A DNA stretch of 64,000 nucleotides. Origin: Balanoglossus misakiensis (lineage: Eukaryota; Animalia; Hemichordata). Location of the stretch: the NCBI GenBank assembly GCA_040954595.2, contig JBECUI020000039.1:72396-136395 (forward strand), read 5' to 3'. Positions 6,866 through 56,156 of the stretch are shown one piece after another; within the stretch, counting starts at the first letter, position 1, and every line of letters begins with the position of its first letter. The notes beneath the pieces were generated by a model. That model was not told the origin of the DNA, ran no database searches, and worked only from the letters and a program-made list of their open reading frames with translations. A program made the translations under genes and the position numbers.

Positions 6866-6874
6866 TAATTAATC

Positions 6875-35246: not shown

Positions 35247-35646
35247 AAACCTCAAGCAAACGCACACTTTTCGTGGTAATTATTGATACCACCCCTAAAT
35301 GGGTGGGGGTTGTGGATGGGGGGCTTATACTAAAATTTTAAGTATAAATTTAAGTTAAAATTATCAGAAGAACCCACCCCGACTTGAAAAAATCTCCGCA
35401 CAAACTTCAATCAAACAGCCACGTTTTGTGGTAGTTATTGATGCCGCCCCTGATGGGTGGGGGCTGTGGATGGCGGGGCTTATACAAAAATTTTAAGTAT
35501 AAATTTAAGTAAAAATTGTGAAATGCCCCTTTACTGACACTAATCTCCCGCGCAAACTTCAAGCAAAGGGGCAGGTTTTGTGGTAATTATTGATACCGCC
35601 CCTGATGGGTGGGGGCTGTGGATGGCGGGGCTTATACAAAAAAAGT
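35247..35646 (+). repeat. Array 1 of the ~154-bp non-coding repeat (units U1-U3)
   Basis: Units start at 35247, 35402 and 35554 (periods 155, 152). Consensus AAACTTCAAKCAAA-N-TTTYGYRGTA-N8-TACCRCCCCTGATGGGTGGGGGYTGTGGATGGCGGRGCTYATAC-AAAATTTTAAGTATAA. Confidence 0.95.
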
Positions 35647-35698
35647 AGATGAAATAATGAATGGAAACCCATCACAAAACTTCACCTACTCCTTCCAC

Positions 35699-35734
35699 AA
35701 ACAAAGCAAACCCCTCTCCTTGGTGGAAAGGGGC
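35699..35734 (-). terminator. Intrinsic terminator of giant lipoprotein gene A
   Basis: Minus strand CCCCTTTCC-ACCAA-GGAGAGGGG followed by TTTGCTTTGTTT, ~18 nt after the stop. Confidence 0.7.
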
Positions 35735-35751
35735 TGGAGCGTATTTTGTAC

Positions 35752-38700
35752 TTATTCTTCCTTATACTCGGGCTGATCGCCAAAGTAGCGTTTGTCATCC
35801 GTATCCCAGAGGTTTGGTGCTTTGCCGTTCCCCAACCAGACCCAGTCTCCCAAATGCTCATCTGTTCCTCCTGTGCTCTGATGAATGGTAAACCCATTTG
35901 TATTCGTAAAGAGTTGTGTACCGGCAGTTGTGGTGGTAGAATCGCCATCGTCGTCCCAGTAGGTATACGGATCGTCGGTTGTGCCCAACCCTCGTCTTTC
36001 AAGACTGCTCTCACTCGTCAGCGGTCCATATTCGGAAGCTTTCAAAATATCTGATGAAGTTATGCCTTTATTAGCATCCAATCCGGTAGTAGCTAAACTA
36101 AAATAGCCATATACTTCCAGACCCTGTCCATATGAAATAGAACCTCCCAACCCTCCGGTATTTTCTCGCGCAGCTCCTGTTCTTGTAATAAAGGAAAGTC
36201 CTGTCAGTAGCTCTGAAAGCTCAATATTTCCGGCTAAGCCACCACTGTAGTAGTAATGGCGTTCACCCCTTGCATCTATCGTGGCAGTGCTATATCCAAT
36301 AACGCTAGTTCCCATAAGTCCTACCAGTCCCCCAATATCGGTGACCCCGCTCACTGTTCCTCTTGAATAGCCGTAGACGGTGCCCACCCCGTTGAATCCG
36401 ACAAGCCCTCCTACATGCTCCTCACCAGTAATATTTCCAAGCGAGTAGCCAATAGTAGGACCAGAATCTCCGGAATTGACTATTCCCACAAGACCCCCTA
36501 CATAATCTCCTCCATAGACATCCCCGCTTGTCCAGCCTTCCACCTGTGCATTCTCGGCATAGCCCACAAGTCCGCCAACGACACCCCCACTTGCACCATT
36601 CACATTTCCTGTATTTTCTCCCCTGTACAAACTCATGCCATTACTGTATCCCATTATGCCCCCGATATGAGTACCAGAAACATAGGAAATAGTTAATGTT
36701 CCACCATTTGTTTCTACAACTGTTTTTGGATTCGTTACCCGAACACGAATGGATTCTACGGTCCCACTTCTTCCTTCCCCTGCAAGAACCCCTGCTCCCG
36801 CCCGTGCTCTCACTGAAGGATCAATAAAAACAAGATTGCTTGCAACATTTCCCGTAGCTACCCCGAAGAGTCCTGCTCGAATTCTGGTTACATCGTCTAT
36901 GACAAAGTTTCGAATAACATATCCTGTTCCTCCGCTCAAACTTCCCGTAAAGGTCGTCGTTGTATCTCCAACTGGAATAAATCCAGTAGTTGCCAGTCCG
37001 ATTGTTCCCTTAGTTGGAAAGTCGATATCCGATTTCAGTTCGTATGCACCATCCAGCTTGTCTGCCATTGCCTGAAGGTCTCGCCATGTGTAAATATCCC
37101 CGTCCCCACTCTTTGCTATCGAAACTGTCTTACTGTCGGAATTACTCCCGTCGGTTACACTGATCGTTATCTGAACCGTTGTTATTCCGCTCAAGGCCGC
37201 CCAGTTCCAATCAATGCTTTGCTGATTTGCTCCTATCGGACCTATGCCGACATTCCCTGCCGTATCTACCGTAACCGTATCTGCTGTATCTGCGCTATCG
37301 TACAAGGTATTGCTTCCATCTTCTATCACCAGCCTTGCTGTTATTCCCGTTCCAGTACTATCTGCAAGACTAACAAGGAATGGATTGGCAATATCTCCTA
37401 TGCTAAAGTATGCCTGTGATGCTACATTAAAGTTTCCTTTGTATATCAGATTACTGTCTCCGACATAGAGATACAGATCAACTGATTGTTCCACATAGTT
37501 GTCCGTGGAGAGGGTAACGTGCAGTTGGTATCCACCCGGAACGGTGGTATCATCCACCGTTATTTCCCCCGTTCCTGCATTGATACTTATACCCGAGATA
37601 GAAGGAGTCATGCTGTATCCTATTGTTCCGCTATCGGCGGGAATGTCATTTGTTTGCAGTGAATAACTCGTTGTGCTTCCGGTATTTCCCGGTGCTCGGG
37701 CAAGAATGCCGTAAGCGAATGCATTGTCGGGAAGTGAAATTTTTGCTACCGTTCCTGAAAGAACTGCCATTATGGCACCGCTATAGCTACTATTGCTCGC
37801 TTCTATCCGGATCTCATATATTCCAGCTTGTGCAGTGGTACTTATTGTTATTATCCCAGCTGCATCGATTGTTATTATCCCTGTATAAGAGGGAATATCA
37901 ATGTCGTTTCGGCGTACCGATGTAATACGGTAACTCAAGAGATCGGCTGTTAATCCGCTTGGCAGATCTGCCACCGTTGGCGTGTAGGTTTTTGGATCTG
38001 CATCGTTATACGGATGATCAATAACCGGATAACTCATGGAGCCGGTTATGGCATTTGCTTCCACAACAGTAATAACAAGGTTGATAGTAAGTGTTCCGCC
38101 ATAATTGCTGGTTGTCGGGGTTGCAGTTACCTGAACCGGATATGTTGCAGGTAAAAGCGAATCCGCAACCTGTATTGTTCCGTCTGCATCAATGCTTATA
38201 CCAACGGGAAGACTACCTGAAAGGGCAGTAATGCTATACGTCGCAGCCGCTGCAGAAGGAATGGTATTTACACTCGGATGATAGGATTGTGCAACGCCCT
38301 CTCGTGCATCGGCAAGGGGTCCGTATTCCATGCGGTAATTGCTTAGCTGGATTGCTGTTATTCTTACCTCTGCATTGACAATTATTTCTCCCCAATAGTT
38401 GTTACGGGTTATTCTCGTCTCTATCTGATAGATACCTATCGGAACAGTATTAGCTATACTAAGGAGTCCATAGCGATAAGCGGACACTCCTTGGGCATAA
38501 TTCTGAACTGAAAATCCTGATTGTTGCGGGGTAACACTGGAAAGCTGATACCTCCATTGGCTGGCTTGTTGAACATTCCCCAAGCCATCTTTTTGTAAGT
38601 TGTAGGATGCGCTTGCAGTACCGTAGACTTTCGAAATGGGTTGATCGTAATATGGCAGGTCAGCTACCGGTATATTAAGGACTCTTTGCGTTTGCACAGC

Positions 38701-41700
38701 CACTGATGCAGGTGATTCTGCTCCCTCATTTCGGGCAATGACCGTTATGCTATAGATTGTATCAGGGTCTAACCCCGTTATGGTATACGACAAGACATTT
38801 CCCACCTCTTGCTGTCCACTTCCCCACGAAAGTGTATATCCAATTATTGTTGCCTGTCCTCCACCAAGAAGCATGCCCGGATCAGTTGGTTCGCTCCAAT
38901 CAACCGTTAGTCGGTACGTTCCATCCGTATCGACTGCTACAAAATTTACAGTTCCTATGCGTGGTACAGTGGGTGCAGTAGGTGCCTGAATGACAGTCAG
39001 GGTTATCCTGTCTGTTTTGCTGCTATCAAGTACCGAAACGACTGTTACTTCAATTGTTCCCGGTGACACCGTAGTTACTAGCCCATCAGTGCCTATGGTA
39101 GCAACCGTTTCTCCGGCTACAGTAGGATTCTCGTTTTCTACTCCCCACTGTACTCCGTGATCACTGATATTTTCAGCTACGAATGATGCTAGCAATGCAA
39201 GGGTATTTGAAGTGAATAGACCCTCTTGGGTCAACTCACTGCCATCTGCCTTGATTATCCGAATACTGTCGATCCCGTTTGCCTTCAGAGTTACCTCGGC
39301 AGACCAGTTACTCATCAGAGATGGAATAATACTGTTTACTGCCCTAATTTGTACATCATATTCTTTTGCTTCTGCTAAACTACTGAGGGTAATGCTCGGT
39401 ATATCCGAATCAACCTCTGTCCACGTGCTTGTTCCATGCAAACGATACTGAATATTGTACTTGCTTGCAACTAAACTCCCATCAACATCCTTCCCCTGAA
39501 CCGCATCCCAGGTAATCTTTAATGCTCCAAATCCCTGTTCTGTCAGATCTTTTACCACATTAGCGACACTTGGTGGTGCTTCTGCTTGCGAATCTACAGT
39601 CAGAGTTATCCTGTCTGTTTTGCTGCTATCAAGTACCGAAACGACTGTTACTTCAATTGTTCCTGATGATACTGCAGTTACTACTCCATCAGTACTTATG
39701 GTAGCAACCGTTTCGCCGGCTACAGTAGGATTTGCGTTTTCTACTCCCCACTGTACTCCGCGATCACTAATATTTTCTGCTACCAGATCTGCTGACAGTG
39801 CTAGGGTATTGGGAATTAATATGGTTCTATCCACTTCGGTTAACTCACTGCCATCTGCCTTGCTTATCCGAATGCTCCCGATTCCGTTTGCCTTCAGAGT
39901 TATCACTGAAGACCAGTTACTCGTCAAATATGTAACCAAACTGTTCACTGCCCTGATTTGTACATCGTACTCTTCTGCACCTGCTAAACTACTGAGGGTA
40001 ATGCTCGGTGTATCCGAATCAACCTCTGTCCACGTGGTTGTTCCATGCAAACGATACTGAATATTGTACTTGCTTGCAACCAAACTTCCATCAATATCCT
40101 TCCCCTGAACCGCATCCCAGGTAATCTTTAATGCTCCCAATCCCTGTTCTGTCAGATCTTTTACCACATTAGCGACACTTGGTGGTGCTTCTGCCTGCGA
40201 ATCTTCGGTGCGTATCGGCAATACGGGGCTTTGTACCGAAATATCAATACTCGTTGCGGTAATGATCGCAAAGTAGTTGCTCTCCGGATTCAAGCCCCCT
40301 ATGTGTATACTCCAGGTATTTCCTGATAATGTCGGTGTATGTTTGTTTCCTTCACTGATAAGATCAGTTTCACTAGTCGAGAGATAGACACGGTAGGTCA
40401 GTGGTACAGACGTAATGCTCTCCCAGTTAAAATCTATACTTGTCCTTGTTACCCTTGGAGTAATGGTTCCAAAACCGGGAACATCGATTGTTATTTCTAC
40501 TCTCTTCGTATCGTCTGCATCAGCTACTGCTTGCACAGTGGTACTTCCGTCTGATAAGGCTGTTACCAGTCCATTGCTTACCCGAATGATGCTCGGATCA
40601 CCGCTTGTCCAGAGAACATCCCTATTCTCCACATTGACCCAAGTATCACTTGGAATCTGAAGCTGTGTACTGGTTCCGACTGGGACCGTCAATGTCGCAA
40701 CCGCACCGTTGGCATCATGGATAACAAGATCACGGATTCCGTTTGCCGGAAATGGTCCTGCCACGCTCCACTCGCTTGCCAATGTCTGATTACTACTATT
40801 GAGTGCACGTATCCGGACTTCATAGTTCTCTGTTCCATCAAGTCCACTGAGTGTTTTGCTGAGATTCTCTTCAATCGCTACAGCACTGATCCAGTCTATT
40901 GCTCCCACCTTTCTGTATGCCACTTCGTAACTACTTGCAACAAAGTTTCCTGCAGTATCGGTCCCTTGTCGATCTTCCTGTGTCCAGGTAATTTTGAGTG
41001 TTCCAATCGTTTTTTCACCCAGATCCTTTCTAATCTCATTGACTTCTCCGGGGTTTGTTGCTTCAACTCCTGCAGTGCTTACTATGAGTAGTTCACTGTT
41101 TTCATCTATGCTATTTCCGGTTACGGTTACCACAATATAATAAGTGCTACGTGGACTTAATCCGCCCATGGTTATCGTCTCTTTGCCCTCACTCGAAACG
41201 GGGGAGAGAGACAATCGATTGGCTTCCTGTATCACTTCCTCAGCTGTCGTACTGACCGTGGTTGTTCGGTAGACTGCATAACTGACACTCGGGATACTGT
41301 GCCAACTGAGAACAATTGACCCGGCAGCAGAAGTAAAAAGCACATTGAGTTTCGGTACAGTAATACGTACCGTATCGCTCTTGCTGTCGTCTGCCTCTGC
41401 GGTTGCAGTAATTATTGCTTCTCCACTTCCGACTACTGCTATCCTTCCTGTATCCGTTATTGTTACGACCGTATTACTACTACTCTCCCAGAGTACCCTT
41501 GTATTTGCCACATTCACGAATGTTCCTGCTGCAAGGCTGAGTCTCGTCGTCTGTCCAAGACCGAGATCAAGCTCTGTAATCGAATTTCCGTCTATATCCT
41601 GTATGACAAAGGGTTTGATTCCATTTGCAAGAAAGGGTCCTGCCACGCTCCACTCGCCTGCCAATGTCTGATCACTACTATTGAGTGCACGTATCCGGAC

Positions 41701-43797
41701 TTCATAGTTCTCTGTTTCATCAAGTCCACTGAATGTTCTGCTGAGAGCCTCTCCAACCGGTACGACGGGGGCACTGATCCAGTCTATTGTTCCCACTTTT
41801 CTGTATTCCACTTCATAGATACTTGCAACAAAGTTTCCTGTAGTATTAGTTCCTTGTCGATCTTCTTGTGTCCACGTAATTGTGAGTGATCCTATCGTTT
41901 TTTCACTCAGATTCTTTTTAATCTCATTGACTTCTCCGGGATTTGTTGCTTGAACACTGTTCGTAGTTATCGTGAGAAGGGAACTCATTTCATTGATTGC
42001 TCCACCAATGAGTGTTACGACAACATAATAGTCGGTTTGTGGATTGAGTCCATCTATTGTCACTGTCTCGGTTCCGTCACTGCTTGTCGGGGTGAGTGAT
42101 ACTCGATTTGCTTGCTGTACCACCGATTCTGCGCTCGTGCTTGCAGTGCTTGTTCGGTAAACCTCATACTGCACACCGGGAACACTGTGCCAACTCAGAG
42201 TAATTGCACGGGCTGATGCAATGCCCTCAATCTGTACAGGGGGAACCGTAATAACTACCGAATCAGTGTTGCTTGGATCTGCTCCGGCTGTTGCGCTTAT
42301 ACTGACATTCCCACTTCCTACTGCATGGATCCTTCCTGCATCCGTTACCGTTACAATGCTCTCATCTGTACTTGCCCAACGAACTTCCGTATTCTCAACG
42401 TTGACAAATGTTCCTGCTGAAAGAATGAGCGTGTATTGATTTCCCAGTGTTATGGTATGTCGTTCTATGGCATTGCCTCCTCCATCTTGTATGACAAAGG
42501 GTTTGATTCCATTTGCAGCAAGCGTTACTTCCTCGCTCCATCCGCTTATCAGAGTATCGTTGGTACTGTTTACTGCCTGTATCCGTATGAGATACTCCGC
42601 TGCTTCATCCAATTCAGTTAGGGTAACGGTCGGATTTCCACTTGTCGGCGAGGAAACAGACTCGTTCTTCCATTCTGTGGTACCGAATTTGCGGTACTGT
42701 ACGGTATAAATACTTGGCACATGGTTCCCATCTATGTCCGTTCCTTGCACGTCTTTCCAGCTGAATGCAAGTGATCCTCTTGTTTTTTCACTGAGCAACT
42801 TTGTTATGGACGAAACAATCTCAGGAGCACGCTCTCCTGATGCTTGGGTTTCGATTGAGAGAATACCGCTGTTTTCAACAATGTCGCCTCCTGTTGCGGT
42901 TACGGTAATATAATAGGTCATTGCTGCAGTCAGACCATCGATGTATAGACTCCATTCATTGAGTAGCGAGTCAAATATCGGGGCTTCCTGTTTGTTCGCA
43001 TCATCTATCAGGATATCAACCGCAGAAGGGTCTTCGGTGCTGAGATAGACACTGTATGTCAAATCAGGAGCAATCGGGTTCCAGCTCAGATTGATTGCAG
43101 TTGATGAGACATCTCTTGTTATGGTCAATGGTGCAACAGAGGTTTGAATGCGTTCCGGTGCAGTGATGATGGTTGATCGTCCGTTATTGTATCGTACACT
43201 TACGGCAACAGAATACTCGACTTGTGGCTCCAATCCTGATATGGTATGACTGACTTTTGAGGCATCATCAATCAGGATTTCTTGTGTTTCTCCACCAGCT
43301 GGGGTCAGATGAATAGTATATCCGGTTGGCTGTTGTACAAGATTGTTTGGTGCATCCCATGTAACTGTAATTTCGTTAGAAGGATTATTACCCGGTAGAG
43401 TAGCAATGTTGTCAGCGGTACTTCCTGCATCAACAACATCACCGGTTGCGGGAAGAGTGATTTGAACGACCGGAGAAGAAGACTCACCCGAAACAGTGGA
43501 AACTTCTACTGTATAGATGGTATTTGGTGCAAAAAGTAATCCTTCAAATGTATGAGAAGGAGATATTGCCGTTACTTCGGCAATAATGTCCTGATTGGGA
43601 TCCCTGATGATAACAGAATAAGAATGTTCACCAGTAGTGGGTGCTTGCCAGGAAACGGTAATAGAGTCCCCTGCACGAAAATGTGCAGAAAGTGCATTGA
43701 CAGGATCTGGAATATTTCCTGAAGTGGCAGTTCCACCACAGGAAAAAACAAAAGCAAAGAAAACAACAAGTGTTGTTGCAATAAGAACTGAACGCAT
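35752..43797 (-). CDS. Giant surface lipoprotein A (2681 aa): FN3 and Ig-like (Big_2) repeats, cadherin-like stalk, C-terminal GLUG-type domain; putative adhesin
   Basis: Start reassigned to the ATG at 43797 after GGAGG. Lipobox FAFVFSC; FN3 motifs (ITVSW..P, GLEPQVEYSVAV); Big_2 motifs (WASTDESIVTVTDAGRIHAVGSG); IYTWRDLQAM..YELKSDIDF and VGGLVG repeats. Confidence 0.85.
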   Translation of the reverse strand: MRSVLIATTLVVFFAFVFSCGGTATSGNIPDPVNALSAHFRAGDSITVSWQAPTTGEHSYSVIIRDPNQDIIAEVTAISPSHTFEGLLFAPNTIYTVEVSTVSGESSSPVVQITLPATGDVVDAGSTADNIATLPGNNPSNEITVTWDAPNNLVQQPTGYTIHLTPAGGETQEILIDDASKVSHTISGLEPQVEYSVAVSVRYNNGRSTIITAPERIQTSVAPLTITRDVSSTAINLSWNPIAPDLTYSVYLSTEDPSAVDILIDDANKQEAPIFDSLLNEWSLYIDGLTAAMTYYITVTATGGDIVENSGILSIETQASGERAPEIVSSITKLLSEKTRGSLAFSWKDVQGTDIDGNHVPSIYTVQYRKFGTTEWKNESVSSPTSGNPTVTLTELDEAAEYLIRIQAVNSTNDTLISGWSEEVTLAANGIKPFVIQDGGGNAIERHTITLGNQYTLILSAGTFVNVENTEVRWASTDESIVTVTDAGRIHAVGSGNVSISATAGADPSNTDSVVITVPPVQIEGIASARAITLSWHSVPGVQYEVYRTSTASTSAESVVQQANRVSLTPTSSDGTETVTIDGLNPQTDYYVVVTLIGGAINEMSSLLTITTNSVQATNPGEVNEIKKNLSEKTIGSLTITWTQEDRQGTNTTGNFVASIYEVEYRKVGTIDWISAPVVPVGEALSRTFSGLDETENYEVRIRALNSSDQTLAGEWSVAGPFLANGIKPFVIQDIDGNSITELDLGLGQTTRLSLAAGTFVNVANTRVLWESSSNTVVTITDTGRIAVVGSGEAIITATAEADDSKSDTVRITVPKLNVLFTSAAGSIVLSWHSIPSVSYAVYRTTTVSTTAEEVIQEANRLSLSPVSSEGKETITMGGLSPRSTYYIVVTVTGNSIDENSELLIVSTAGVEATNPGEVNEIRKDLGEKTIGTLKITWTQEDRQGTDTAGNFVASSYEVAYRKVGAIDWISAVAIEENLSKTLSGLDGTENYEVRIRALNSSNQTLASEWSVAGPFPANGIRDLVIHDANGAVATLTVPVGTSTQLQIPSDTWVNVENRDVLWTSGDPSIIRVSNGLVTALSDGSTTVQAVADADDTKRVEITIDVPGFGTITPRVTRTSIDFNWESITSVPLTYRVYLSTSETDLISEGNKHTPTLSGNTWSIHIGGLNPESNYFAIITATSIDISVQSPVLPIRTEDSQAEAPPSVANVVKDLTEQGLGALKITWDAVQGKDIDGSLVASKYNIQYRLHGTTTWTEVDSDTPSITLSSLAGAEEYDVQIRAVNSLVTYLTSNWSSVITLKANGIGSIRISKADGSELTEVDRTILIPNTLALSADLVAENISDRGVQWGVENANPTVAGETVATISTDGVVTAVSSGTIEVTVVSVLDSSKTDRITLTVDSQAEAPPSVANVVKDLTEQGFGALKITWDAVQGKDVDGSLVASKYNIQYRLHGTSTWTEVDSDIPSITLSSLAEAKEYDVQIRAVNSIIPSLMSNWSAEVTLKANGIDSIRIIKADGSELTQEGLFTSNTLALLASFVAENISDHGVQWGVENENPTVAGETVATIGTDGLVTTVSPGTIEVTVVSVLDSSKTDRITLTVIQAPTAPTVPRIGTVNFVAVDTDGTYRLTVDWSEPTDPGMLLGGGQATIIGYTLSWGSGQQEVGNVLSYTITGLDPDTIYSITVIARNEGAESPASVAVQTQRVLNIPVADLPYYDQPISKVYGTASASYNLQKDGLGNVQQASQWRYQLSSVTPQQSGFSVQNYAQGVSAYRYGLLSIANTVPIGIYQIETRITRNNYWGEIIVNAEVRITAIQLSNYRMEYGPLADAREGVAQSYHPSVNTIPSAAAATYSITALSGSLPVGISIDADGTIQVADSLLPATYPVQVTATPTTSNYGGTLTINLVITVVEANAITGSMSYPVIDHPYNDADPKTYTPTVADLPSGLTADLLSYRITSVRRNDIDIPSYTGIITIDAAGIITISTTAQAGIYEIRIEASNSSYSGAIMAVLSGTVAKISLPDNAFAYGILARAPGNTGSTTSYSLQTNDIPADSGTIGYSMTPSISGISINAGTGEITVDDTTVPGGYQLHVTLSTDNYVEQSVDLYLYVGDSNLIYKGNFNVASQAYFSIGDIANPFLVSLADSTGTGITARLVIEDGSNTLYDSADTADTVTVDTAGNVGIGPIGANQQSIDWNWAALSGITTVQITISVTDGSNSDSKTVSIAKSGDGDIYTWRDLQAMADKLDGAYELKSDIDFPTKGTIGLATTGFIPVGDTTTTFTGSLSGGTGYVIRNFVIDDVTRIRAGLFGVATGNVASNLVFIDPSVRARAGAGVLAGEGRSGTVESIRVRVTNPKTVVETNGGTLTISYVSGTHIGGIMGYSNGMSLYRGENTGNVNGASGGVVGGLVGYAENAQVEGWTSGDVYGGDYVGGLVGIVNSGDSGPTIGYSLGNITGEEHVGGLVGFNGVGTVYGYSRGTVSGVTDIGGLVGLMGTSVIGYSTATIDARGERHYYYSGGLAGNIELSELLTGLSFITRTGAARENTGGLGGSISYGQGLEVYGYFSLATTGLDANKGITSSDILKASEYGPLTSESSLERRGLGTTDDPYTYWDDDGDSTTTTAGTQLFTNTNGFTIHQSTGGTDEHLGDWVWLGNGKAPNLWDTDDKRYFGDQPEYKEE
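38993..40204 (-). repeat. Recent intragenic tandem duplication (~603-609 bp) of an FN3+Big_2 module
   Basis: DSQAEAPPSVANVVKDLTEQG...SVLDSSKTDRITLTV occurs twice with long identical DNA stretches (e.g. GTTATCCTGTCTGTTTTGCTGCTATCAAGTACCGAAACG at ~39002 and ~39605). Confidence 0.92.
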
Positions 43798-43820
43798 CGC
43801 AACCTCCAAGCGTAAAAGAA

Positions 43821-43849
43821 AGTATAGTAAAAAACAGCAAAAAAGTCAA
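43821..43849 (-). promoter_or_regulatory. sigma70 promoter of gene A
   Basis: TTGACT-17 nt-TATACT, then the GGAGG RBS and ATG. Confidence 0.8.
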
Positions 43850-43870
43850 GTAAAATCGTAAAAGTCGAAG

Positions 43871-43890
43871 CCCCCCCCCCCCCCCCCCCC
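43871..43890 (-). repeat. Poly-G(20) tract (poly-C on +) 21 nt upstream of the gene A -35 box; candidate phase-variation tract
   Basis: 20 consecutive C on the + strand. Confidence 0.9.
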
Positions 43891-44073
43891 TAAAAACTCA
43901 TTAAGAGGAGTTTTTTGAGAGGTGCAAATGTGATATTATAGAGAAAAACTGCTTCAATATGTCTTATTTTGGAGATTCACTCCGGGTAATGTTAGTGAAA
44001 ATGTTCTTGCATGGTGCTCAATTCTTTTGCACTTTTTTTAAGAAAAAAAGATTTTTTTATGAAGGGCATGGGG

Positions 44074-44364
44074 AAACTTCAATCAAAACGGCAGGTTTTG
44101 TGGTAATTATTGATACCGCCCCTGATGGGTGGGGGTTGTGGATGGCGGAGCTCATACACAAATTTTAAGTATAAATTTAAGTTAAAATTATCAAAAGAAA
44201 CCACCCCGACTTGAAAAAATCCCCGCACAAACTTCAATCAAACTGCCACTTTTCGCAGTAGTACGTTATACCGCCCCTGTATGGGTGGGGGCTGTGGATG
44301 GCGGAGCTATATAAAAAACTTGACTTGAATACCACCTATGGATGGCGGAGCTCATACAAAAAAA
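44074..44364 (+). repeat. Array 2 of the ~154-bp repeat (U4, U5, plus an internally deleted fragment at 44328-44364)
   Basis: Units start at 44074 and 44229 (period 155). Fragment AATACCACC-TATGGATGGCGGAGCTCATACAAAAAAA. Confidence 0.95.
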
Positions 44365-44392
44365 CAAGTCCCAGCCTGGCCAGGACTTGTTT
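44358..44392 (-). terminator. Intrinsic terminator of giant lipoprotein gene B
   Basis: AAACAAGTCC-11 nt-GGACTTGTTT followed by a T-run on the minus strand, ~10 nt after the stop. Confidence 0.8.
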
Positions 44393-44401
44393 CTATATTG
44401 C

Positions 44402-47400
44402 CTATTGCGCCTTGTACTCCGGCTGTTCCCCGAAATACTGCTTGTCATCCGTATCCCAGAGACTCGGGAATCTACCGAACCCATACCAGACCCAGTCTCC
44501 CACCATTGCATCCTCCGGCACTGCAGTAGAGCCATAAATTGACCAATCGGTAAAGATGACTTGATCATCTGTTGGATCTCCCGTCGTTCCACTAGAATCG
44601 TAGTACGTATCAGTCCTTCTAACGATTCCTGCCTCAGACGAAACCTCGATTGCATAACTACCATCCGGTAACGATCCACTTCCTATTGCATTAAGTTGTC
44701 GCCCCGATGCGTATTCAGTACCCGCTGCTGTTCTATCAAAGTGAGCCTTCACCGAACCACTGAAATATCTCCCCACAACCCCACCGAACTGAGTATTTGT
44801 TCCGCCATTACGACTGACTGTAGCAGTACTGTAGCCGATTACACTTCCCTCATTCATGCCAATGAGACCGCCAACATCGTGACGTCCGGCTACACTACCA
44901 GTCATATAGCCAATTACTGTACTAAGTGTGTTGGTAGAACCCATTAGTCCTCCTACTTCGCCACCATCTTCACTGGTAACAGCCCCCGTTGCATATCCTG
45001 TTATGACTGAACTGATAGACGCAAATGTATAATCCCCCCCTACAAGACCACCTACAGTGAAATCGCCAGTTACATCTCCTGTTGTCCATCCAACTATCGT
45101 TGCACCATCCACCCTACCCACCAGTCCCCCGACATATTGGTTGCCATTCACTCTTGCTGCACTATCAATGCTGAGCAACTGATTATTCCTACCAACGTAA
45201 CCAACAATTCCTCCAGCATAACTGTTGTTCCTGAATCCCGAGGTTACGTTACTACGAACATGTTCTCCTGTTCGATCTTCTATTCGTACACTTACATTTT
45301 GTATAGCTATTTTAGATCGAAAACTATTGCCAAGTTCCCCCGCAATAACCCCAACATATTTATGCGCATTGACATAAGGATCGATACATATCAGATCAGT
45401 AATAACTCCTTCACTGTAACCAAAAATACCTGCGTAGTCCAGACTGGCATCATCAATATAGAAATCGCTGATAGCATAACGTGTGCCATCATCAGCAAGA
45501 CCACTTAGGCTGCCCTGAAAGCTTGTGCTGCTGGAACCAACCGGCACAAAGCCGGAAATCGGAAATGAATAGCTCCCAGGTGGTGGGAATTGAATATCAG
45601 AACCTAGTCGATAGCTCCCGCTCAAATTATGCTGCATCGCCTGCAAGTCGCGCCAACTATAGAGATCGCCACTACTACTTTTCTCTTTGTTCATCAATAC
45701 CGGACCTGCTGTTCCGCTACTGTCGGTTACAGTTATCTCCATTCTTAGATTCGCAGGAATGCCTGCCCAGTCGCTATACTGCAAGCCCAAGCCAATACCT
45801 ACAATAGAACCACCATTTTCGTCTGTTCCGACAGTTATATCTGCTGCTTTGTTATGCACTTCGGAATTATCCGCCGCATTAAGTACACGCACGTCTGCCG
45901 TTATTCCGGATGCATCGGATACCCCCTCAATAATCCAGAGAAAGGCATTATCAAAGTCTCCGATACTGAAATACTCCTGTGCCATTGCACCCATTTCAGG
46001 TTTATAGCTTAGAATAATACGGCTATCTGCTAAAACAATAATAGAAACAATACTCTCTACACTTCCCGTATACTCTGTTACTGATGATGTCGCAGTAACC
46101 GTTAGGCTATAGGTATTTGCCGGGAGGGTATCAGCAATCGTTATGCTCCCGCTACTTGCATCGACTGTAATGCCGCTTGTTTGCGGATCGACCGTTGTGA
46201 GACTATAACTCACCTCTGCTGGAAGGTTATTATTCTGTATCGGAACAGTCTTACCTGTTCCAAAGGGTATAATATCCACTACCCCATAGTCAAAATTCCC
46301 GCTTAACACTGCCGGTTCTATTGTTATCTGCACCGTAACTGATAACTGCCCTACATATCCTTCCTGCCTTGCAATAACTGTAAGCTCATAGTTTCCGAGG
46401 GGTAGGACTCCGGTACTACCTCCCCCCCAATCTGATTCACGAAAAAATGGCAAGAAATTTTCTGAATACGCTTCAAATCCCGGATTAGCAATGCTCTGCC
46501 CATCCTTTTTGACATCACCGATTGAATACGTATAATCATTGGTAAGTTCATCAGGCATGTCTCTTATATAACCCGAAAAGCTTACATGCCCTCCATATGG
46601 TGCTACTACTGAACCTGAACCAAATACGAACATTCTTGCACCTGCAGGAAGTGGCGGAAGAGTTGATTCTACAAGAATAGCTATCTCCGCACTACTACTG
46701 CCAAGATAGTATCCTCCTGTTGCTGTTGCCGTTACGGTACCGCTATAGGTGCCAACTGCAAGGTTTTGTATGCTAATGGCTCCCGTTGCTTGCTCAATGA
46801 CAATATCACCTGCATTCATTGCATCTATGACTAGCTGTTCGCTTGCGCTAAGACTGTACAACAATGTTACATCCTGCAAGGGGCCCACTACCGAAAAGGT
46901 TTTCTGTTCATTGGGTGCAACTGCTACAATATCATAGGCAGGCGTATAGTAATCTGCTAATACCGCAGGGCTTACCGTCCTGATAACGTCGATATCAAGC
47001 GCTGCATAGCCATCTGCTGAGACAACTACTCGTACCGTGTAGGTTCCGGGAATTACACTTGCTGCAATCTCTATTGTTCCATCACTGTCCACTGTAATTC
47101 CAGATCCGTCGCCACCGCTGTATCTAAGATCGCTTCTACTTAGCCCTGTCGGTAATCCGCTTACGACTGTTATTCCATAGCTCTTCCCTGTCCGATACAC
47201 CGCAGCTCCACTCTCGTAGCTTATCTGGGCTGTAAGGGCGCGGTCGACAATGGCTATACTCACTGTTATCGAGATGCTCCCGCTATAGTTTGCACCGGTT
47301 GCCGTTGCTGTTACCAAAAGACCGTATATATCAGATGCTGCTGTTGCCGATACCCGAATCTCCCCATTTGTCGCTTCAATGCTAATTATCCCACTTAAAT

Positions 47401-50400
47401 CTCCCGACTGGCTACTCATGCTGTATTCTACCCCTGCATCACTTGGGATATCCGTTGTTGCTTGATACACTCCACCTGCAAAATCGGTTGTCGGTATCGA
47501 ATAACTTAAGCTATACCCTGCTATGTCTTTCTGCAAAACAACAAGAGTGAAAGCCCCGCTACTGAGACTATTTGCATAGTTCGCAAGCGATCCTGCACTC
47601 ACCGTTACCGTATACTGTCCTACATCGACAGTGCTGCCAACACTGATACTGCCGTCCCCAGCAATACTGATTCCATCGGTAATAAGAGCTCCGTCTTTAA
47701 TTACCTGTATCTCATAGTCCAAATCTGCCGGATTAATGTTCGTATCAGAGAATTGTGCTACATAACTCGCCTGCTCGCCGTAGATTGCATTCACGCTCGT
47801 ATCATAACTCAAACTTCCACTCAAACTCGGAAGCTCTACCACCACCCTTAGCTCATCATAGACGCTGCTATCGGCTGTTGCCGCTGCACGGATGGTCGTC
47901 GTTCCTGCATTCTGTCCGGTTACCACCCCGCTTGTGCTATCAACTGTAGCGATCCCCTCATCCGTACTCGTCCATAGAAGCGTCTCGGATACATTCTCGG
48001 CATCTACGGTTGCCGTAAGGTTCAGCGTTTCTCCGCGTATCACGCTCGGTGCTTGCTGGTCTATGCTAACTGATGCAACACCGTTGCTTCGAAGCGATAC
48101 CTCATCGGTCCATCCGCTTTCGTGTGTTCCGTCCCAATATGCTCGTATGCGTATTAGATAGACTCCACCTCCGACAAGTCCGGTGAGTTCTACCGAACTG
48201 TCGCTTGTCTCAACCCATTCTGTAGCCACGCCATCCTGTCGATACTCTATCTCAAAGGTGCTATCCATCTCCGTTGTTCCATCAATAGCCTTTCCCTTTG
48301 TTCCCTCCGTCCAGACAATGCTCAGGGTATTGATTGCTGTGTTACTCGAGTCTTTCTGAATATTGCTTGGTTTCCCGGGATTCGTCGAACGGTCAACCTG
48401 TGCTCGCGTGGTAAAGGAGAATATCTCACTCATACTCTCCTGCTCCCCACCTCGTGCGATAATAAGAACATAATAGCTTGTTGCTGCTTGTAATGCACTT
48501 ATGGTAATGCTGGTATCACTGTGGTCGTTATCCGCTTGCAGGGTCGCTCCTGCAATAAATGCTTCTGCCGTATCGGCTGTGTTGGATGACAGGTATACAA
48601 AATAGCTACTTTCCACCGCTTCGCCACTTTCCAGAAGAGCTGGGGCGACCGCTGACCATGAGAGAGTTAAACTATCCTCCGTTGCTTCAGCATTAACACC
48701 TCTAACTGAACCGGGGGGACGATTGAGTGCTGCAGTCTCTATGCTCAGGGCGGTACTTTCCGAACTATTCATGCCGCTATTTGCATGTGCTACAACAACA
48801 AAGACATAAGCCGTCTTTCCGGTGAACCCATCTATGCGAATCGTGCTATCAGTAATTCCTGTCCGTGTTGTTTCAGCACTGACCTGTTCACTGGCATAAC
48901 TGCTTCCTTCATGCCAATACAGCGTGTATCCACTTATTTCAGCAGGAATGCCCCCTTCTTGCCTCCCGGCATCAGTTGGTGCTGTCCATTCGAGGGTAAG
49001 GGTAATGCTTTGTCCATCAACTGCTCCCTCACTTCCAACCTGTCTCAGATCACTGACCGGTTGCGGTGCAGTTGCGTCCTGTAAGGTAACTCGAATGGTC
49101 AGGCTATCTTGTACCATATTATCTGCATCAGCAAATGCGGTAATAATTGTCTCTCCTTCTGTGTTTGCGACGACCTCGCCCTGTTCTGAAATTGTCGCTA
49201 CAAGTGTTGCACTACTCTCCCATCGAACGCTTTCAATAACGTTCTCTCCATCAACAAGGGCATGCAAGATCAGTTCATCCCCATTTTTCATTGCAAGTTC
49301 TTCTCCTGCATCAGCACCGCCGCTTTGAATACTCACCGAACGAACGCCGTTACTCATAACCTGTCCTTCTATCCATTCACTTGCTTTATTTTCGTCATTG
49401 GGATAGTCCGCATTCCATGCTCGGATGCGGATACGGTATTCCTGTGCACCAAGAAGATTTTCGATGCTTACCTGTTCAGTGAGTACTTCATCAACCGGAT
49501 TCCAACGTGCTTCACTGTAGTATTCCACGGTATAGCTCGTTGCAGCCTCTGCTCCATTCGCACTTGTACCGGGTATTCCTGCAGTCCAGATAATACGCAT
49601 AGCATTGCTTGCTTGGTAGTCGCTATCTTTCCTGATATTGCTGACTGCTCCCGGTGGTCCCGATTGGTCGGTATTCCCGGTGGTAATGGTGATTGTTGTT
49701 GGCAGCGATTCTCCGTCTGCTGTATGGACTACGACTGAAACAGTATACTCGACTGTACTGCGTAAGCCACTGACGGTGTAGGAAACATTTCCATCAGCTT
49801 CTGCAACCAGCTCTGCTGGTGTTGCTTCGTATGTTAATTCGGGTACATCGACTGTAAGCGGTATCAGGGAAATGGCATAGTGGGTAATTCCGCTTGCTAC
49901 TGAGGGGGTCCATTGTATGAGAAGCTGTACATCAGTAGCTGTGGTTGCATCTCTTGTTGTGAGATTGGTAATGCCGGCAATGATGCGCGGTGTCATTACC
50001 GGGCCTGAGACGGGTCGGATACTGGTGGATGAGGTTCCCTCATCTATGTTTGCGACAACCCTTACATCATATTCGGTTTCATCATTAAGTTCAGTGATAT
50101 CAATAAATGTATTGCCGGTCGTATACTCTTGTGCCTCTCCATCCGGTGAGGTAAGTGTAACGGTATAGGACATAACCGGATCTCCTGCAGGAGCGACCCA
50201 TTGTGCGGAGATGCTTCCTGCTGTTGCAGTTACCTGCAGGTTTGAAGGAGCATCTAAGCTACTACCAGTCTGCAGTGGCTCTGCTGCTACAGTTGCTGAA
50301 GACTCGATATCCTGTTTTACTGCAATAACCGAGAGGGTGTAGCTTGTGTTTGCTGCTAACTCATCAGTATCAAAGGTAACTGATAGTGAGAGGACTCCGG

Positions 50401-50644
50401 TACCAGTATTGGGAACTATTTTATTGATGGGAAGACCACTATCAGGAGTCAACTGAACCCGATAACTCACCGCAGGTTCGGCTGCAGTAAATTCGACTTG
50501 GACCGTACTTCCATCGACAAACCAAGCTGAAACTTTCGTAACCGGGGAAACAGTGCTAACACTGGCTGTTCCAGTATCAGCACAGGAAACAAACACACTG
50601 AGCATGAGGCTCAGTGCCAAAACAGATATAGATAATACACGCAT
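44402..50644 (-). CDS. Giant surface lipoprotein B (2080 aa), paralog of A: FN3/Big_2 repeats, stalk, GLUG-type C-terminal domain; putative adhesin
   Basis: Start reassigned to the ATG at 50644 after GGAGG. Lipobox SVFVSC; same domain order as A; LYSWRDLQAM..YRLGSDIQFP and VGGLVG repeats; shared terminal motif. Confidence 0.85.
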   Translation of the reverse strand: MRVLSISVLALSLMLSVFVSCADTGTASVSTVSPVTKVSAWFVDGSTVQVEFTAAEPAVSYRVQLTPDSGLPINKIVPNTGTGVLSLSVTFDTDELAANTSYTLSVIAVKQDIESSATVAAEPLQTGSSLDAPSNLQVTATAGSISAQWVAPAGDPVMSYTVTLTSPDGEAQEYTTGNTFIDITELNDETEYDVRVVANIDEGTSSTSIRPVSGPVMTPRIIAGITNLTTRDATTATDVQLLIQWTPSVASGITHYAISLIPLTVDVPELTYEATPAELVAEADGNVSYTVSGLRSTVEYTVSVVVHTADGESLPTTITITTGNTDQSGPPGAVSNIRKDSDYQASNAMRIIWTAGIPGTSANGAEAATSYTVEYYSEARWNPVDEVLTEQVSIENLLGAQEYRIRIRAWNADYPNDENKASEWIEGQVMSNGVRSVSIQSGGADAGEELAMKNGDELILHALVDGENVIESVRWESSATLVATISEQGEVVANTEGETIITAFADADNMVQDSLTIRVTLQDATAPQPVSDLRQVGSEGAVDGQSITLTLEWTAPTDAGRQEGGIPAEISGYTLYWHEGSSYASEQVSAETTRTGITDSTIRIDGFTGKTAYVFVVVAHANSGMNSSESTALSIETAALNRPPGSVRGVNAEATEDSLTLSWSAVAPALLESGEAVESSYFVYLSSNTADTAEAFIAGATLQADNDHSDTSITISALQAATSYYVLIIARGGEQESMSEIFSFTTRAQVDRSTNPGKPSNIQKDSSNTAINTLSIVWTEGTKGKAIDGTTEMDSTFEIEYRQDGVATEWVETSDSSVELTGLVGGGVYLIRIRAYWDGTHESGWTDEVSLRSNGVASVSIDQQAPSVIRGETLNLTATVDAENVSETLLWTSTDEGIATVDSTSGVVTGQNAGTTTIRAAATADSSVYDELRVVVELPSLSGSLSYDTSVNAIYGEQASYVAQFSDTNINPADLDYEIQVIKDGALITDGISIAGDGSISVGSTVDVGQYTVTVSAGSLANYANSLSSGAFTLVVLQKDIAGYSLSYSIPTTDFAGGVYQATTDIPSDAGVEYSMSSQSGDLSGIISIEATNGEIRVSATAASDIYGLLVTATATGANYSGSISITVSIAIVDRALTAQISYESGAAVYRTGKSYGITVVSGLPTGLSRSDLRYSGGDGSGITVDSDGTIEIAASVIPGTYTVRVVVSADGYAALDIDVIRTVSPAVLADYYTPAYDIVAVAPNEQKTFSVVGPLQDVTLLYSLSASEQLVIDAMNAGDIVIEQATGAISIQNLAVGTYSGTVTATATGGYYLGSSSAEIAILVESTLPPLPAGARMFVFGSGSVVAPYGGHVSFSGYIRDMPDELTNDYTYSIGDVKKDGQSIANPGFEAYSENFLPFFRESDWGGGSTGVLPLGNYELTVIARQEGYVGQLSVTVQITIEPAVLSGNFDYGVVDIIPFGTGKTVPIQNNNLPAEVSYSLTTVDPQTSGITVDASSGSITIADTLPANTYSLTVTATSSVTEYTGSVESIVSIIVLADSRIILSYKPEMGAMAQEYFSIGDFDNAFLWIIEGVSDASGITADVRVLNAADNSEVHNKAADITVGTDENGGSIVGIGLGLQYSDWAGIPANLRMEITVTDSSGTAGPVLMNKEKSSSGDLYSWRDLQAMQHNLSGSYRLGSDIQFPPPGSYSFPISGFVPVGSSSTSFQGSLSGLADDGTRYAISDFYIDDASLDYAGIFGYSEGVITDLICIDPYVNAHKYVGVIAGELGNSFRSKIAIQNVSVRIEDRTGEHVRSNVTSGFRNNSYAGGIVGYVGRNNQLLSIDSAARVNGNQYVGGLVGRVDGATIVGWTTGDVTGDFTVGGLVGGDYTFASISSVITGYATGAVTSEDGGEVGGLMGSTNTLSTVIGYMTGSVAGRHDVGGLIGMNEGSVIGYSTATVSRNGGTNTQFGGVVGRYFSGSVKAHFDRTAAGTEYASGRQLNAIGSGSLPDGSYAIEVSSEAGIVRRTDTYYDSSGTTGDPTDDQVIFTDWSIYGSTAVPEDAMVGDWVWYGFGRFPSLWDTDDKQYFGEQPEYKAQ

Positions 50645-50674
50645 AGCGCCCTCCAAAGGATGATATATAAAACA

Positions 50675-50703
50675 ATGATAAGACAAAAAGCAAGAAAAGT
50701 CAA
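50675..50703 (-). promoter_or_regulatory. sigma70 promoter of gene B
   Basis: TTGACT-17 nt-TATCAT, then the GGAGG RBS and ATG. Confidence 0.8.
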
Positions 50704-50736
50704 GCATTTTCTTCAGAAAATACAAAAAGTGTCATG

Positions 50737-50755
50737 CCCCCCCCCCCCCCCCCCC
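50737..50755 (-). repeat. Poly-G(19) tract (poly-C on +) 33 nt upstream of the gene B -35 box; candidate phase-variation tract
   Basis: 19 consecutive C on the + strand. Confidence 0.9.
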
Positions 50756-50916
50756 TATGAGACCTCTAATATGAGTAAAAAATTAGAAATTATGGGAACT
50801 AATTATAGATAGAACATAAATTATAGAGATAATACTGGGCTAAAAAACAGCATTTTTCTCTGTTTCTGTTTTTAGGGGGAATAATGTATGGAAAAAAAAA
50901 GATAAAAATCTGGTGA

Positions 50917-51633
50917 AAACTTCAATCAAACTGCCATATTTCGCAGTAGTACCTTATACCACCCCTGATGGGTGGGGGCTGTGAATGGCGGAGCTCATAC
51001 AAAAAACTACTTAACATCTGTGTAGTTGTTTTGCAGGGGAGTGCGGTGATTCTTGTGTGCCGGCCTGGCAAAGGCTCAAGCAAACAGCCACTTTTTGTGG
51101 TAGTACGTTATACCACCCCTTAAGGGTGGGGGTTGTGGATGGCGGGGCTTATATAAAATTTTAAGTATAATTTTAGGTTAAAATTATCAGAAGGAAGCAC
51201 CTAACAAGATCAATTTCCTCGCACAAACTTCAAGCAAAACGCACACTTTTCGTGGTAATTCTTAATACCTCCCCTGATGGGTGGGGGTTGTGGATGGCGG
51301 GGTTTATACAAAAATTTTAAGTATAATTTTAAGTAAAAATTAAAAGAACCCACTCTACAAAATCAATCCCCTCGCTCAAACTTCAATCAAAGGCACGGAT
51401 TTCGCAGTAATTCTTAATACCGCCCCTTAAAGGGTGGGGGCTGTGGATGGCGGAGTTCATACACAAATTTTAAGTATAATTTTAAGTAAAAATTAAAAGA
51501 ACCCACCCTACAAGATCAATTCCCACGCTCAAACTTCAAGCAAACGCACGGATTTCGCAGTAGTACCTTATACCACCCCTGATGGGTGGGGGTTGTGGAT
51601 GGGAAAGATCATACTAAATTTTAAGTAAAAATT
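50917..51633 (+). repeat. Array 3 of the ~154-bp repeat (U6-U10)
   Basis: Units start at 50917, 51071, 51225, 51378 and 51531 (periods 154, 154, 153, 153). Confidence 0.95.
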
Positions 51634-51654
51634 GAGAGGATGTACCCACTAATT

Positions 51655-54600
51655 TCATTTTAACCCACGTATTTCTTCGATTGACGGCGGCGAATACGTG
51701 TTACTTACAAATATCTTTTTGATTTCTACTATCAATCGCAAAAGATATTCGTGTTTTGTTTTTTTATAAATATTTTTTAATGACTTTATGACTGTATTAA
51801 AAGCCCTTTTTGTTTTACAGTTAGCAACAATTAATTTGTATGAATTTACACACATTTCTAAAATAGCATTTCTTCTGTCGGATCTACTCTTATACTGATA
51901 CGAGTAAATCATTAACCTCTTTACTTGTCTAAGATTTTTTATATTCCCTGTAGAAAATATACCGCCCATGCCATGCCAAGCCATTCGTCCAGGGAAAGTG
52001 CCCCCCCTTAAAAGTTGCTTAGTATAATAACTAAATACGCCTCTGTCTTCTTTATCGTTGGACAAAACAAATTCAGCTAATTGCTTTTTGACTGCTTTGA
52101 CCTTTGTTTGAAAAAATGCCTTTCTCGTATAACATAGTAAATATTGCTTTAAAGTATCATCATTGATATTATTAAAGTCAGAAAGAAAACCCCATGCATA
52201 ATTATGCTTTCTTTGTTGTGCTACTTCGTCAACACTACACAGTGCACTAATAAACGTATCTGCACCAACCTTTGAAATATCAATTCCACCTAGTATAGCA
52301 ACCTCCAGTATTTCGGGTCTATAGTCATTATCAATATTTTTTTTAATATACTCTGTAATACATATCTTCAACTTACCTCTCTGGGATCGATCCAAACAAT
52401 CCCAATGGGACCGAAGGAAGTGACACACAGCAAGAATAGACCATTCATGATCTGACATAGCAGTTACACATCCAAAATTATCTAAAATAAAACTTATTAT
52501 TTCTTTACGATCTATATATTTCCCTAAATAATCAATAGAGAGAGTATTATGATCAATACACACGAATCTTTGTGATGAATTCACAAACCCAGAAAAAGCA
52601 GCGCCTATTATTTTCTTGCCATATTGTTCTTTGAATTCACTATTGTTCGCTAACATGTTTGTTTTATTCAAAAAATAACAGGCTATGGATTGATACTTTC
52701 TTTGAGAATCTTCTCTGGTGCAATTAATATTTTCCATTGGGTGTTGATCAAAAACCCATTTTATCCAGCCAATTAATTTCTCTCTTTCTTCTTGAGAGAG
52801 AACACTATAATCTGGTTTCTGTTCATCCATATAGCAAGCCAACCAAACAGCCCAATCGTGCTCCCATGACATACCCAAGCATTTTAATGCATCTTGTTTC
52901 GTAACAGAATCTTTTTCCTTGCTAGTCAATGTTTTCATTAAAAAAATAACAAAAAAATTATACTCTAGCCTATTCTGAATAAATTTTACTGATAATAAAT
53001 CCTTTTGACTAATACCCTTTTTTTGAAAAAACGAAAACAACTTGCCCAAATCATTTTTTAGAGTATCACAACTATTAAAAATCGAGTGTAACCCTTCGAT
53101 CGTTTTCTCTTTTTCCATCCTCTGTGCGTTTTCATATTCTTGCCCCTGTTCTCTTATCTCGGAAATTTTTTGTTTTCTTTCAGTTGAAATTTTGCTTTGT
53201 ACATAGTCATAAAGAGAATGTTCACTAGAGATACAAAGTGTTACCCGATTATAGACATCTTGCAACGACCTATTTCCTGGAATCTCAAAATATCTTTGAA
53301 AATCATCAAAGTCATCTTGAGAAGTGAGTCTACCAAGTAAATCATAGATGACTTCATCATTCGCCATTCCAACTGAGTCTTTTTTAAATATCTTTTGAAG
53401 TACCAGCAAAAATAAAGAACTATCTTGGATTAACTTGTCTATCAGAGTTATTTCTTCCGAGCGAAGTACTAGGTAGACTTGCATTTTTATGCTTACCCAA
53501 CGGGCTATAATTTCGATCTTATCTTTCAATGAACCGGTGCGTTTGTAATAGGCTTCTATGTTTTCTAATAGAATCCCTACCAGACCTTGAAAATAATTAT
53601 CAGTTATTATGCATGGAAGATCACTTAAAATATACTCTATGAAAGTCCAGAGAGACTCTTGATTATTGGATAAAAAGTTCCGAATAGGAAAATAAAGGAC
53701 ATCTATGACAATGAAAATTTGCCTAATACTACTTTGAAAATCATCATCCATTTCCGCAGGTACCACTATAGCGATTTTGCCCTTCTCCCTCTGCTCCATT
53801 TCTACAGCAGTCTTTACTAACGATTTTAACTCTTCAAGGGTCAAGCTATACTGCGATTTTTTTAACAATATACAAAGAAAATTAATGAATTCTTCAGGGT
53901 GTTGGATAGATTTTTCAAAAATTAGTGCTATGTTCTCTTTTGTATAGTAAGGTAAACGCCTATTTTGACAAATAAAACCATAAAGTTTTTTGATTATTCC
54001 TAATTTATGCGTATCAAGATTTTGCATTAACTGCAAAAAATAATCTAATAGCTTTTTATTTTCTTCGTCCAGTATTTGTAATTGCTTAGCTGGCATAGTG
54101 GAAAATGCTTCCCACAAAAAAGATAAAAGAAGTGCCACTTTACTATTGTACTCTTCTATCCTAACAACCTCATCTATTGCATACCGAATATTCTTATTGT
54201 TTTTTCCAGCAAAAATAGATAATTCTTGGGAGAGTTCTAAATCCATACTTGTCAAATAGGGATCTTCTATAATCGCTTTAAATATTTTATGATTTGTATC
54301 GTTATCAATTTTATCCTGCTCAATGGAGAGGAATAACCTTGCATTTTCTTTTATAAGTTCCCGTAATAAGTATCTAAATTTTTCATTATTATCTAAAGCA
54401 AGTAAGTTTAAAACAAATCTAAATGTATTAATTAAACAAGGAATAATAATACCTTCTTTAGTAAATGTATTTTTTATTTGCTTTGCATCTAACCCTACTA
54501 CCCTTTTAGCGACTAGATATTCCTGTATATTTTTATGGCTAAACTGAAAAGGCATGGTTAAACCAATGAAGTCAAAATCTTTCTTGCTATCATCCCCTAA

Positions 54601-55878: not shown

Positions 55879-55886
55879 CTCTACTC

Positions 55887-56156
55887 CTACAAGTTGCTAC
55901 TATATGGTAATGATTTTATATAGTTTTCCATAAATTGCCAATCTGGTTCATATCCTCCTTTGGAATTTTGTTTTGTTGGAAGTTTTATTTTTGTTTGTTT
56001 TATACGTGTTTGTGAAAATTTCCTACCATACCCGTATCGAATTTTTTCTAAGTTAATCACTGTTTGAATGAATATGGCAATATGAGAATTCATGGTAAAT
56101 TTTGGGATTAATTTTTCAACATGATCAGAAACAGCAAAACCCAATACCTTACTATT
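55887..56156 (-). pseudogene. 5'-truncated restriction-modification specificity (S) subunit remnant
   Basis: Only the last TRD half is present: FAVSDHVEKLIPK...FIQTVINLEKIRYGYGRKFSQTRIK..KIKLP...PDWQFMENYIKSL. An in-frame TGA lies 5 codons upstream of the TTG at 56144; no M or R gene. Confidence 0.7.

Follow-up and report, generated by a model that had tools for sequence, protein, structure and literature searches.

The locus described here lies in a 64,000-bp stretch of contig JBECUI020000039.1 (assembly GCA_040954595.2; the whole stretch is called the window below), and it raises the question of how two giant genes, A and B, each encoding a predicted lipoprotein, came to lie between copies of a tandem DNA repeat. 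The original prediction held that the repeats form a landing pad, into which circular cassettes carrying one repeat unit each would integrate by crossover between units of the same subtype. Direct, matched copies of a ~90-bp core were shown to flank self-contained A and B modules, and read contigs from a public sample indicated extra copies and mosaic variants of A and B, many more cores, and reuse of the core ends. The explanation that we prefer, and to which we give an even chance, is that the cores are homologous-recombination anchors of a multi-locus repeat family, between whose arrays whole modules are duplicated, deleted and exchanged.

Using a hidden Markov model (HMM) of the core, ten copies (U1 to U10) were found in the window, all on the plus strand, all within bp 35247 to 51626, and grouped into three arrays as had been predicted. 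The sole additional HMM match in the 64 kb was an eleventh element, a core remnant at bp 44337 to 44363, and the rest of the window contained no further cores. Successive core-to-core spacings are 155, 152, 8520, 155, 6688, 154, 155, 153 and 152 bp. The spacing behind the predicted unit of ~154 bp is therefore real (152-155 bp within arrays), but the unit itself is not uniform: it consists of a ~90-bp core, running from AAACTTCAA at the 5' end to ATACAAAAA at the 3' end, and a ~62-bp linker, and a full standard linker accompanies six of the ten cores, that of U10 being partial. GC content is 43-49% in the cores and 26-31% in the standard linkers, and linker T4 of array 2 is 93% identical to T1 of array 1. 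The linker following U6 (bp 51009 to 51070, 48% GC) cannot be aligned with the others, yet it has the same length and keeps the period; this second linker family, of the U6 type and also 48% GC, was present in the read contigs as well. U3, U5, U6 and the remnant all end at the 3' A-run, while U1, U4, U6 and U7 start at the 5' A-run and are preceded by non-standard sequence. Removal of the two gene segments in silico, joining U3 to U4 and U5 to U6, restores an array of eight units with a period of 152-155 bp, as the prediction stated.

Genes A and B are each intact, with a signal peptide and cysteine (both identified by eye), promoter, poly-G tract, ribosome-binding site (RBS) and terminator, and each promoter matches the sigma70 consensus at 10 of 12 positions. 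The earlier description of the segments as self-contained holds for these two modules, but the piece touching the gene B terminator is the core remnant and not U5, and the T-run of this terminator is the A-run of the remnant. Over the final ~700 aa the products of A and B share 36% identity, in a GLUG-type region where the GLUG/M26_N matches of gene B are weak, and their lipoprotein relatives show at most 33-45% identity, again over GLUG-type regions. Gene A also contains internal repeats of two sizes (bp 38993 to 42807), those of ~605 bp at 87-90% identity and those of 885 bp at no more than 90%, which are substrates for length change. In Treponema pallidum, according to the available text of PMC7864442, poly-G length controls tpr transcription. 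The window resembles that system in that a spirochaete gene for a surface protein has poly-G within its promoter region, but the tracts here are 19-20 nt long and lie 21-33 bp upstream of the -35 box, whereas that of tprL, in the same text, has 7-11 nt and is found just before the start site. By this analogy A and B probably form a phase-variable surface-protein family, in which poly-G slippage may switch each gene.

The cores flanking each gene were compared in a post hoc test of pair matching. Those on either side of gene A (U3/U4) are 92% identical, rank 1 of 45 pairs in a tie with the adjacent pair U2/U3, and those on either side of gene B (U5/U6) are 91% identical, rank 3 of 45; just 2 of 630 disjoint pair-pairs reach the summed identity of the two, in agreement with the predicted matching. 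Mean identity is 83% for adjacent cores and 80% for other pairs. In a longer alignment that includes non-shared tail columns, U3/U4 drops to a score of 86, under U2/U4 and U1/U8 (88). The U5/U6 subtype and its break at AAAAAACT are present in the sequence as described. The stretch of 46 bp said to be identical between U3 and U4 (bp 35570 to 35615 and bp 44090 to 44135) is indeed exact, but it has no special status, as U2/U3 share 47 bp and U6/U10 share 41 bp. If the cores serve as recombination anchors, crossover would occur inside the core by host RecA-type recombination or gene conversion, for gene A most simply inside these 46 bp, and circles might arise as by-products instead of being a dedicated form.

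The pair-matching signal sits in the variable 5' segment of the core (P 0.005), in which both flanking pairs are 91% identical (ranks 2-3 of 45), compared with P 0.095 for the 3' part. This concentration, together with core ends that are constant at the A-runs in window and read contigs and a 154-bp period kept even with an unrelated linker, would suit cores that are attachment (att) sites, at which a trans-encoded site-specific enzyme inserts and excises circular cassettes of 6.7-8.5 kb with subtype matching in the 5' segment. We consider this unlikely, if worth keeping in view. As the prediction had noted, no recombinase is encoded in the 64 kb: 128 open reading frames (ORFs) of at least 80 aa were listed, and the 41 main ones, scanned for domains, included no integrase, resolvase, transposase or integron integrase, though RecJ, RecO and MutL were among them. 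No terminal inverted repeat was seen in the cores, no circle junction could be distinguished from other arrays in the read contigs, and U1/U8, U2/U3 and U6/U10 are as alike in parts, which is expected under ordinary conversion.

The att-site explanation also finds no integron-type sites to draw on. By attC criteria taken from the accessible part of PMC9229058, there are no RYYYAAC/GTTRRRY pairs 50-160 bp apart on either strand of the three arrays, and only 3 of 40 DNA folds have z < -2 (U4 and U6 cores only), without a long hairpin, which upholds the claim that the sites are not attC. The arrangement is integron-like insofar as direct-repeat sites alternate with gene-bearing and short empty segments; it is unlike an integron in having no box pair, long bottom-strand hairpin or intI, and in its cargo of 6-8 kb with its own promoter. 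Known structured RNA was rejected too, no Rfam family being found in the cores (Thr_leader matched the gene B terminator below threshold, E 0.13), and a sigma70 promoter scan, which gave 17 sites where shuffled sequence would be expected to give 31, placed none inside cores. Repetitive extragenic palindromic (REP) elements and bacterial interspersed mosaic elements (BIMEs) that depend on REP-associated tyrosine transposases (RAYTs, IS200/IS605 Y1) have palindromic REPs in inverted pairs plus a Y1 transposase; here all cores are direct and the window has no Y1_Tnp match. Candidate dif/Xer-like and Chi-like readings were weighed by consensus only; the motif GNTGGNGG occurs 19 times in cores and 24 times elsewhere.

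Three runs from one sample, possibly the source of the window, were searched, and the region was found in two of them, as contigs only. In run X1 the fabV-side contig has a depth of 18.8 and shows 0 differences from the window over 1295 bp, and the hisD-side contig a depth of 22 with 8 differences in 4296 bp. Four long A/B contigs listed without a replaced segment have depths of 47-64, or 2.2-3.4 times those of the flanks at similar GC, and one long A contig at 2-3 times flank depth includes the promoter, a point that also suits att-site insertion of whole cassettes. The A contigs differ from the window by 0.65% (18/2780) and the B contigs by 1.2% (8/660), compared with 0-0.19% for the flanks, in a single sample in which paralogues are not separable from alleles. 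A fifth long contig, at depth 31, is 12-15% divergent and has 114 bp of A replaced by 108 other letters. From the same A-run, core 3' ends lead on into different flanks (loose ends 35644 and 51618, among the best 12 of 135), and among the best 15 of 19 joints a U3-like end is joined onto a B-type gene end (35644>44423, depth 13.6) and a core end is fused to an A-type terminator (44308>35701, depth 16.4). Summed depth at one core position was 3321, which, because overlapping short contigs inflate it, means many core copies and not 150. The predicted cassette mobility thus gained some signs in its favour, namely A/B-like sequence at 2-3.4 times depth and core ends on other flanks, but the many cores and several A/B-like gene copies point away from a single landing pad, and the array is probably not a one-off. 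In the read contigs, extra chromosomal loci or tandem amplification would look the same as circles, or as another organism that shares the genes.

Several observations count against recombination anchors. The longest identical run between U5 and U6 is 20 bases, and with just 20 identical bases in a row this pair is short for a recent RecA crossover. For joints the likeness threshold was 80-85%, and other organisms may be their source; summed depth in X1 does not equal copy number; and no contig, these being short-word contigs, runs the full length of a module or demonstrates an empty site. The 5' and 3' ends of the core are moreover fixed in unrelated flanks, which homology alone does not explain and which is a hint of an enzyme that cuts at set positions.

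Unrelated genomes contain the G-rich half of the core as well, a motif CCCC-N3-7-GGGHGGGGGYTGTGGATGG ending in GGGGGYTGTGGATGG. A pattern scan of a genome collection matched 24 stretches, none of them spirochaetal. Allowing one mismatch, a 16-mer gave 16 copies in G001 (Holosporales), 13 in G005 (Peribacteria) and 8 in G004 (Planctomycetota), with 0 for the reversed control; it was not above that control in G002 (7 vs 5) or G003 (2 vs 4). Actinomycetes have motif-bearing repeats too, and overall the solitary repeats with this motif come from Actinomycetota, Planctomycetota, Patescibacteria and Holosporales. Its distribution is patchy: in group samples centred on one genome each, and with that genome counted, 2/61, 4/151, 1/151 and 3/10 genomes have it. 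A metagenome scan gave 0 matches with the specific pattern and 25 single matches, none tandem, with the loose one; viral contigs gave 0 with either, and plasmids and phages gave no match. The literature covered, chiefly outside subscription titles, contained no description of the core element or of dispersed G-rich repeats. G001, a 1.3-Mb genome, has 33 PDDEXK_2 (Rpn-type) matches.

Because the motif marks solitary dispersed repeats in unrelated genomes, the core may have begun as a small selfish repeat, an origin that the sequence comparison suggests. The further proposal that the core still is a selfish element, resembling a miniature inverted-repeat transposable element (MITE) or REP and tandemly amplified, with the bracketed lipoprotein genes moving passively as composites and no adaptive cassette system, appears improbable to us. 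The copies elsewhere are mostly intergenic, in lineage-specific repeats of ~80-150 bp by housekeeping genes, and core depth is very high, both as such an element would have it. The window cores, on the other hand, all lie within the 16 kb that surround the lipoprotein genes, with none in the other 48 kb, and the other phyla share the G-rich motif and nothing else of the core. Nor do motif-bearing genomes share a mobiliser among the five families tried: Y1_Tnp was found in 1 of 3 such genomes, DUF559 in 0 of 5, PDDEXK_2 and IS110 in 1 of 5 each, and GIY-YIG in 5 of 5 but also in 12 of 14 controls. A DDE_Tnp_1 transposase beside the sole G367 copy was taken as chance, without counterpart at the other copies read. 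It is likewise a doubtful, though slightly less remote, suggestion that the G-rich motif is recognised by a trans-acting enzyme cutting at the core-end A-runs, which would shuttle promoter-bearing, phase-variable lipoprotein cassettes of 6-9 kb as circles among tandem arrays in a non-integron system of a spirochaete.

Two known systems bear comparison with the recombination anchors proposed here. Neisseria intergenic mosaic element (NIME) arrays, made of dRS3 and RS elements, have regular conserved units and lower-GC spacer families and lie beside variable surface-protein genes, according to the text available of PMC1797815, which proposes that array-flanked genes enter arrays via homologous recombination or a phage recombinase and calls repeat-array-driven surface variation Neisseria-specific. 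The window cores are most like NIMEs in their working, each unit alternating with lower-GC linker families. However, dRS3 is a 20-bp inverted repeat, whereas the window core is ~90 bp long, direct, not palindromic and of near-constant period; when compared by the dRS3 consensus as read, the only form used, that inverted repeat was not seen in the core alignment. Unlike NIMEs, the window carries promoter-bearing lipoprotein modules of 6-8 kb in a spirochaete-like host. In the spirochaete Borrelia hermsii, where vlp/vsp switching involves the UHS and the downstream homology sequence (DHS), the DHS is a 214-bp extragenic repeat that contains an inverted repeat, occurs dispersed between lipoprotein genes and acts as a crossover point, and silent genes are converted non-reciprocally into one expression site (PMC6011951, in the part available). 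The window repeat is instead in tandem and on both sides, and A and B each have their own promoter. The arrays thus belong to neither NIME nor DHS, but are best read as a variant of repeat-array-driven surface variation.

The DHS and its inverted repeat are needed for vmp switching in the same part of PMC6011951, and by extension the window cores could be DHS-like gene-conversion boundaries, or G-quadruplex switches, that serve a single expression site while the majority of lipoprotein copies stay silent. G4Hunter values reach 1.5 or more in a plus-strand window of each of the ten cores, and each core has a 6-bp hairpin with a variable loop. We nevertheless think this very improbable, given that A and B are intact with full promoter, RBS and terminator, that at 36% identity at best they are unlike silent cassettes, and that the core consensus has two short stems in which 0 of 13 pairs are compensatory.

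Table 1. Coordinates of repeat arrays, lipoprotein modules and the adjoining gene in the window
Feature	Position (bp)	Strand	Remarks
Array 1: U1 (35247), U2 (35402), U3 (35554), standard linkers T1, T2	35247..35644	+	U3 ends at A-run, 35644
Gene A, predicted terminator	35709..35735	-	
Gene A, predicted lipoprotein, 2681 aa	35752..43797	-	Cys lipobox by eye; FN3 and Big_2 repeats
Gene A promoter, sigma70-like, TTGACT-17-TATACT	43821..43849	-	
Gene A poly-G, 20 nt, 21 bp upstream of -35 box	43871..43890	-	
Array 2: U4 (44074), U5 (44229), linker T4	44074..44320	+	
Core remnant, eleventh, internally deleted; A-run is U-tract of gene B terminator	44321..44364	+	
Gene B, predicted terminator	44358..44393	-	Hairpin and T-run by eye; absent from terminator scan listing
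Gene B, predicted lipoprotein, 2080 aa	44402..50644	-	Cys lipobox by eye; FN3, Big_2, weak MBG_2, GLUG/M26_N region
Gene B promoter, sigma70-like, TTGACT-17-TATCAT	50675..50703	-	
Gene B poly-G, 19 nt, upstream of promoter	50737..50755	-	
Array 3: U6 (50917), U7 (51071), U8 (51226), U9 (51379), U10 (51531)	50917..51650	+	Atypical linker after U6
Mrr_cat/NACHT-like gene, 1407 aa, 32% GC	51655..55878	-	Weak matches, below Pfam cut-offs; adjoins U10

The neighbours of the arrays in the window are housekeeping genes. The NACHT gene had been noted to end next to the last unit, which it does, but since the core HMM found no core on its far (hisD) side in the window, it is not a bracketed module. An HsdS remnant lies upstream of it, and in X1 the NACHT contig has a depth of 8.1 (22 on the hisD side) with 0 differences in 3138 bp, beside a second NACHT 5' allele, ~10% divergent, at depth 3-4. 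The slot containing the gene and the remnant (bp 51655 to 56144), beside hisD, is variable and probably of a defence type. Elsewhere in the window, a 24/48-bp coding tandem repeat (bp 27805 to 27961) lies in a 476-aa membrane protein without a Pfam match, and three adjoining ORFs at bp 5462 to 9057 (467, 296 and 473 aa, the last two overlapping) have no Pfam match either.

The best FabV match is 71% identical, and among the 120 matches listed those with names belong chiefly to Spirochaetaceae, Alkalispirochaetaceae and Spirochaetia, at 53-58%; from this pattern the host is probably a spirochaete without a close public relative. None of ten window proteins was present in the protein collection searched. 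The 1,176,142-bp contig of the nearest relative is behind P0121, P0341, P0334, P0362 and P0344 and encodes the 71% FabV together with at least four related GLUG lipoproteins, and P0002 and P0003, from another lineage, are both on contigs of 32.8 kb.

In a lineage that lacks close sequenced relatives, the locus shows with unusual clarity whole genes for surface proteins packaged between matched repeats, as modules that would be open to exchange. The shared G-rich motif suggests that small dispersed repeats of a family not yet described occur in several phyla. The reading of the cores as recombination anchors, if true, would extend repeat-array-driven surface variation from Neisseria to spirochaetes, and would make the insertion proposal set out in the available text of PMC1797815 directly testable by long reads.

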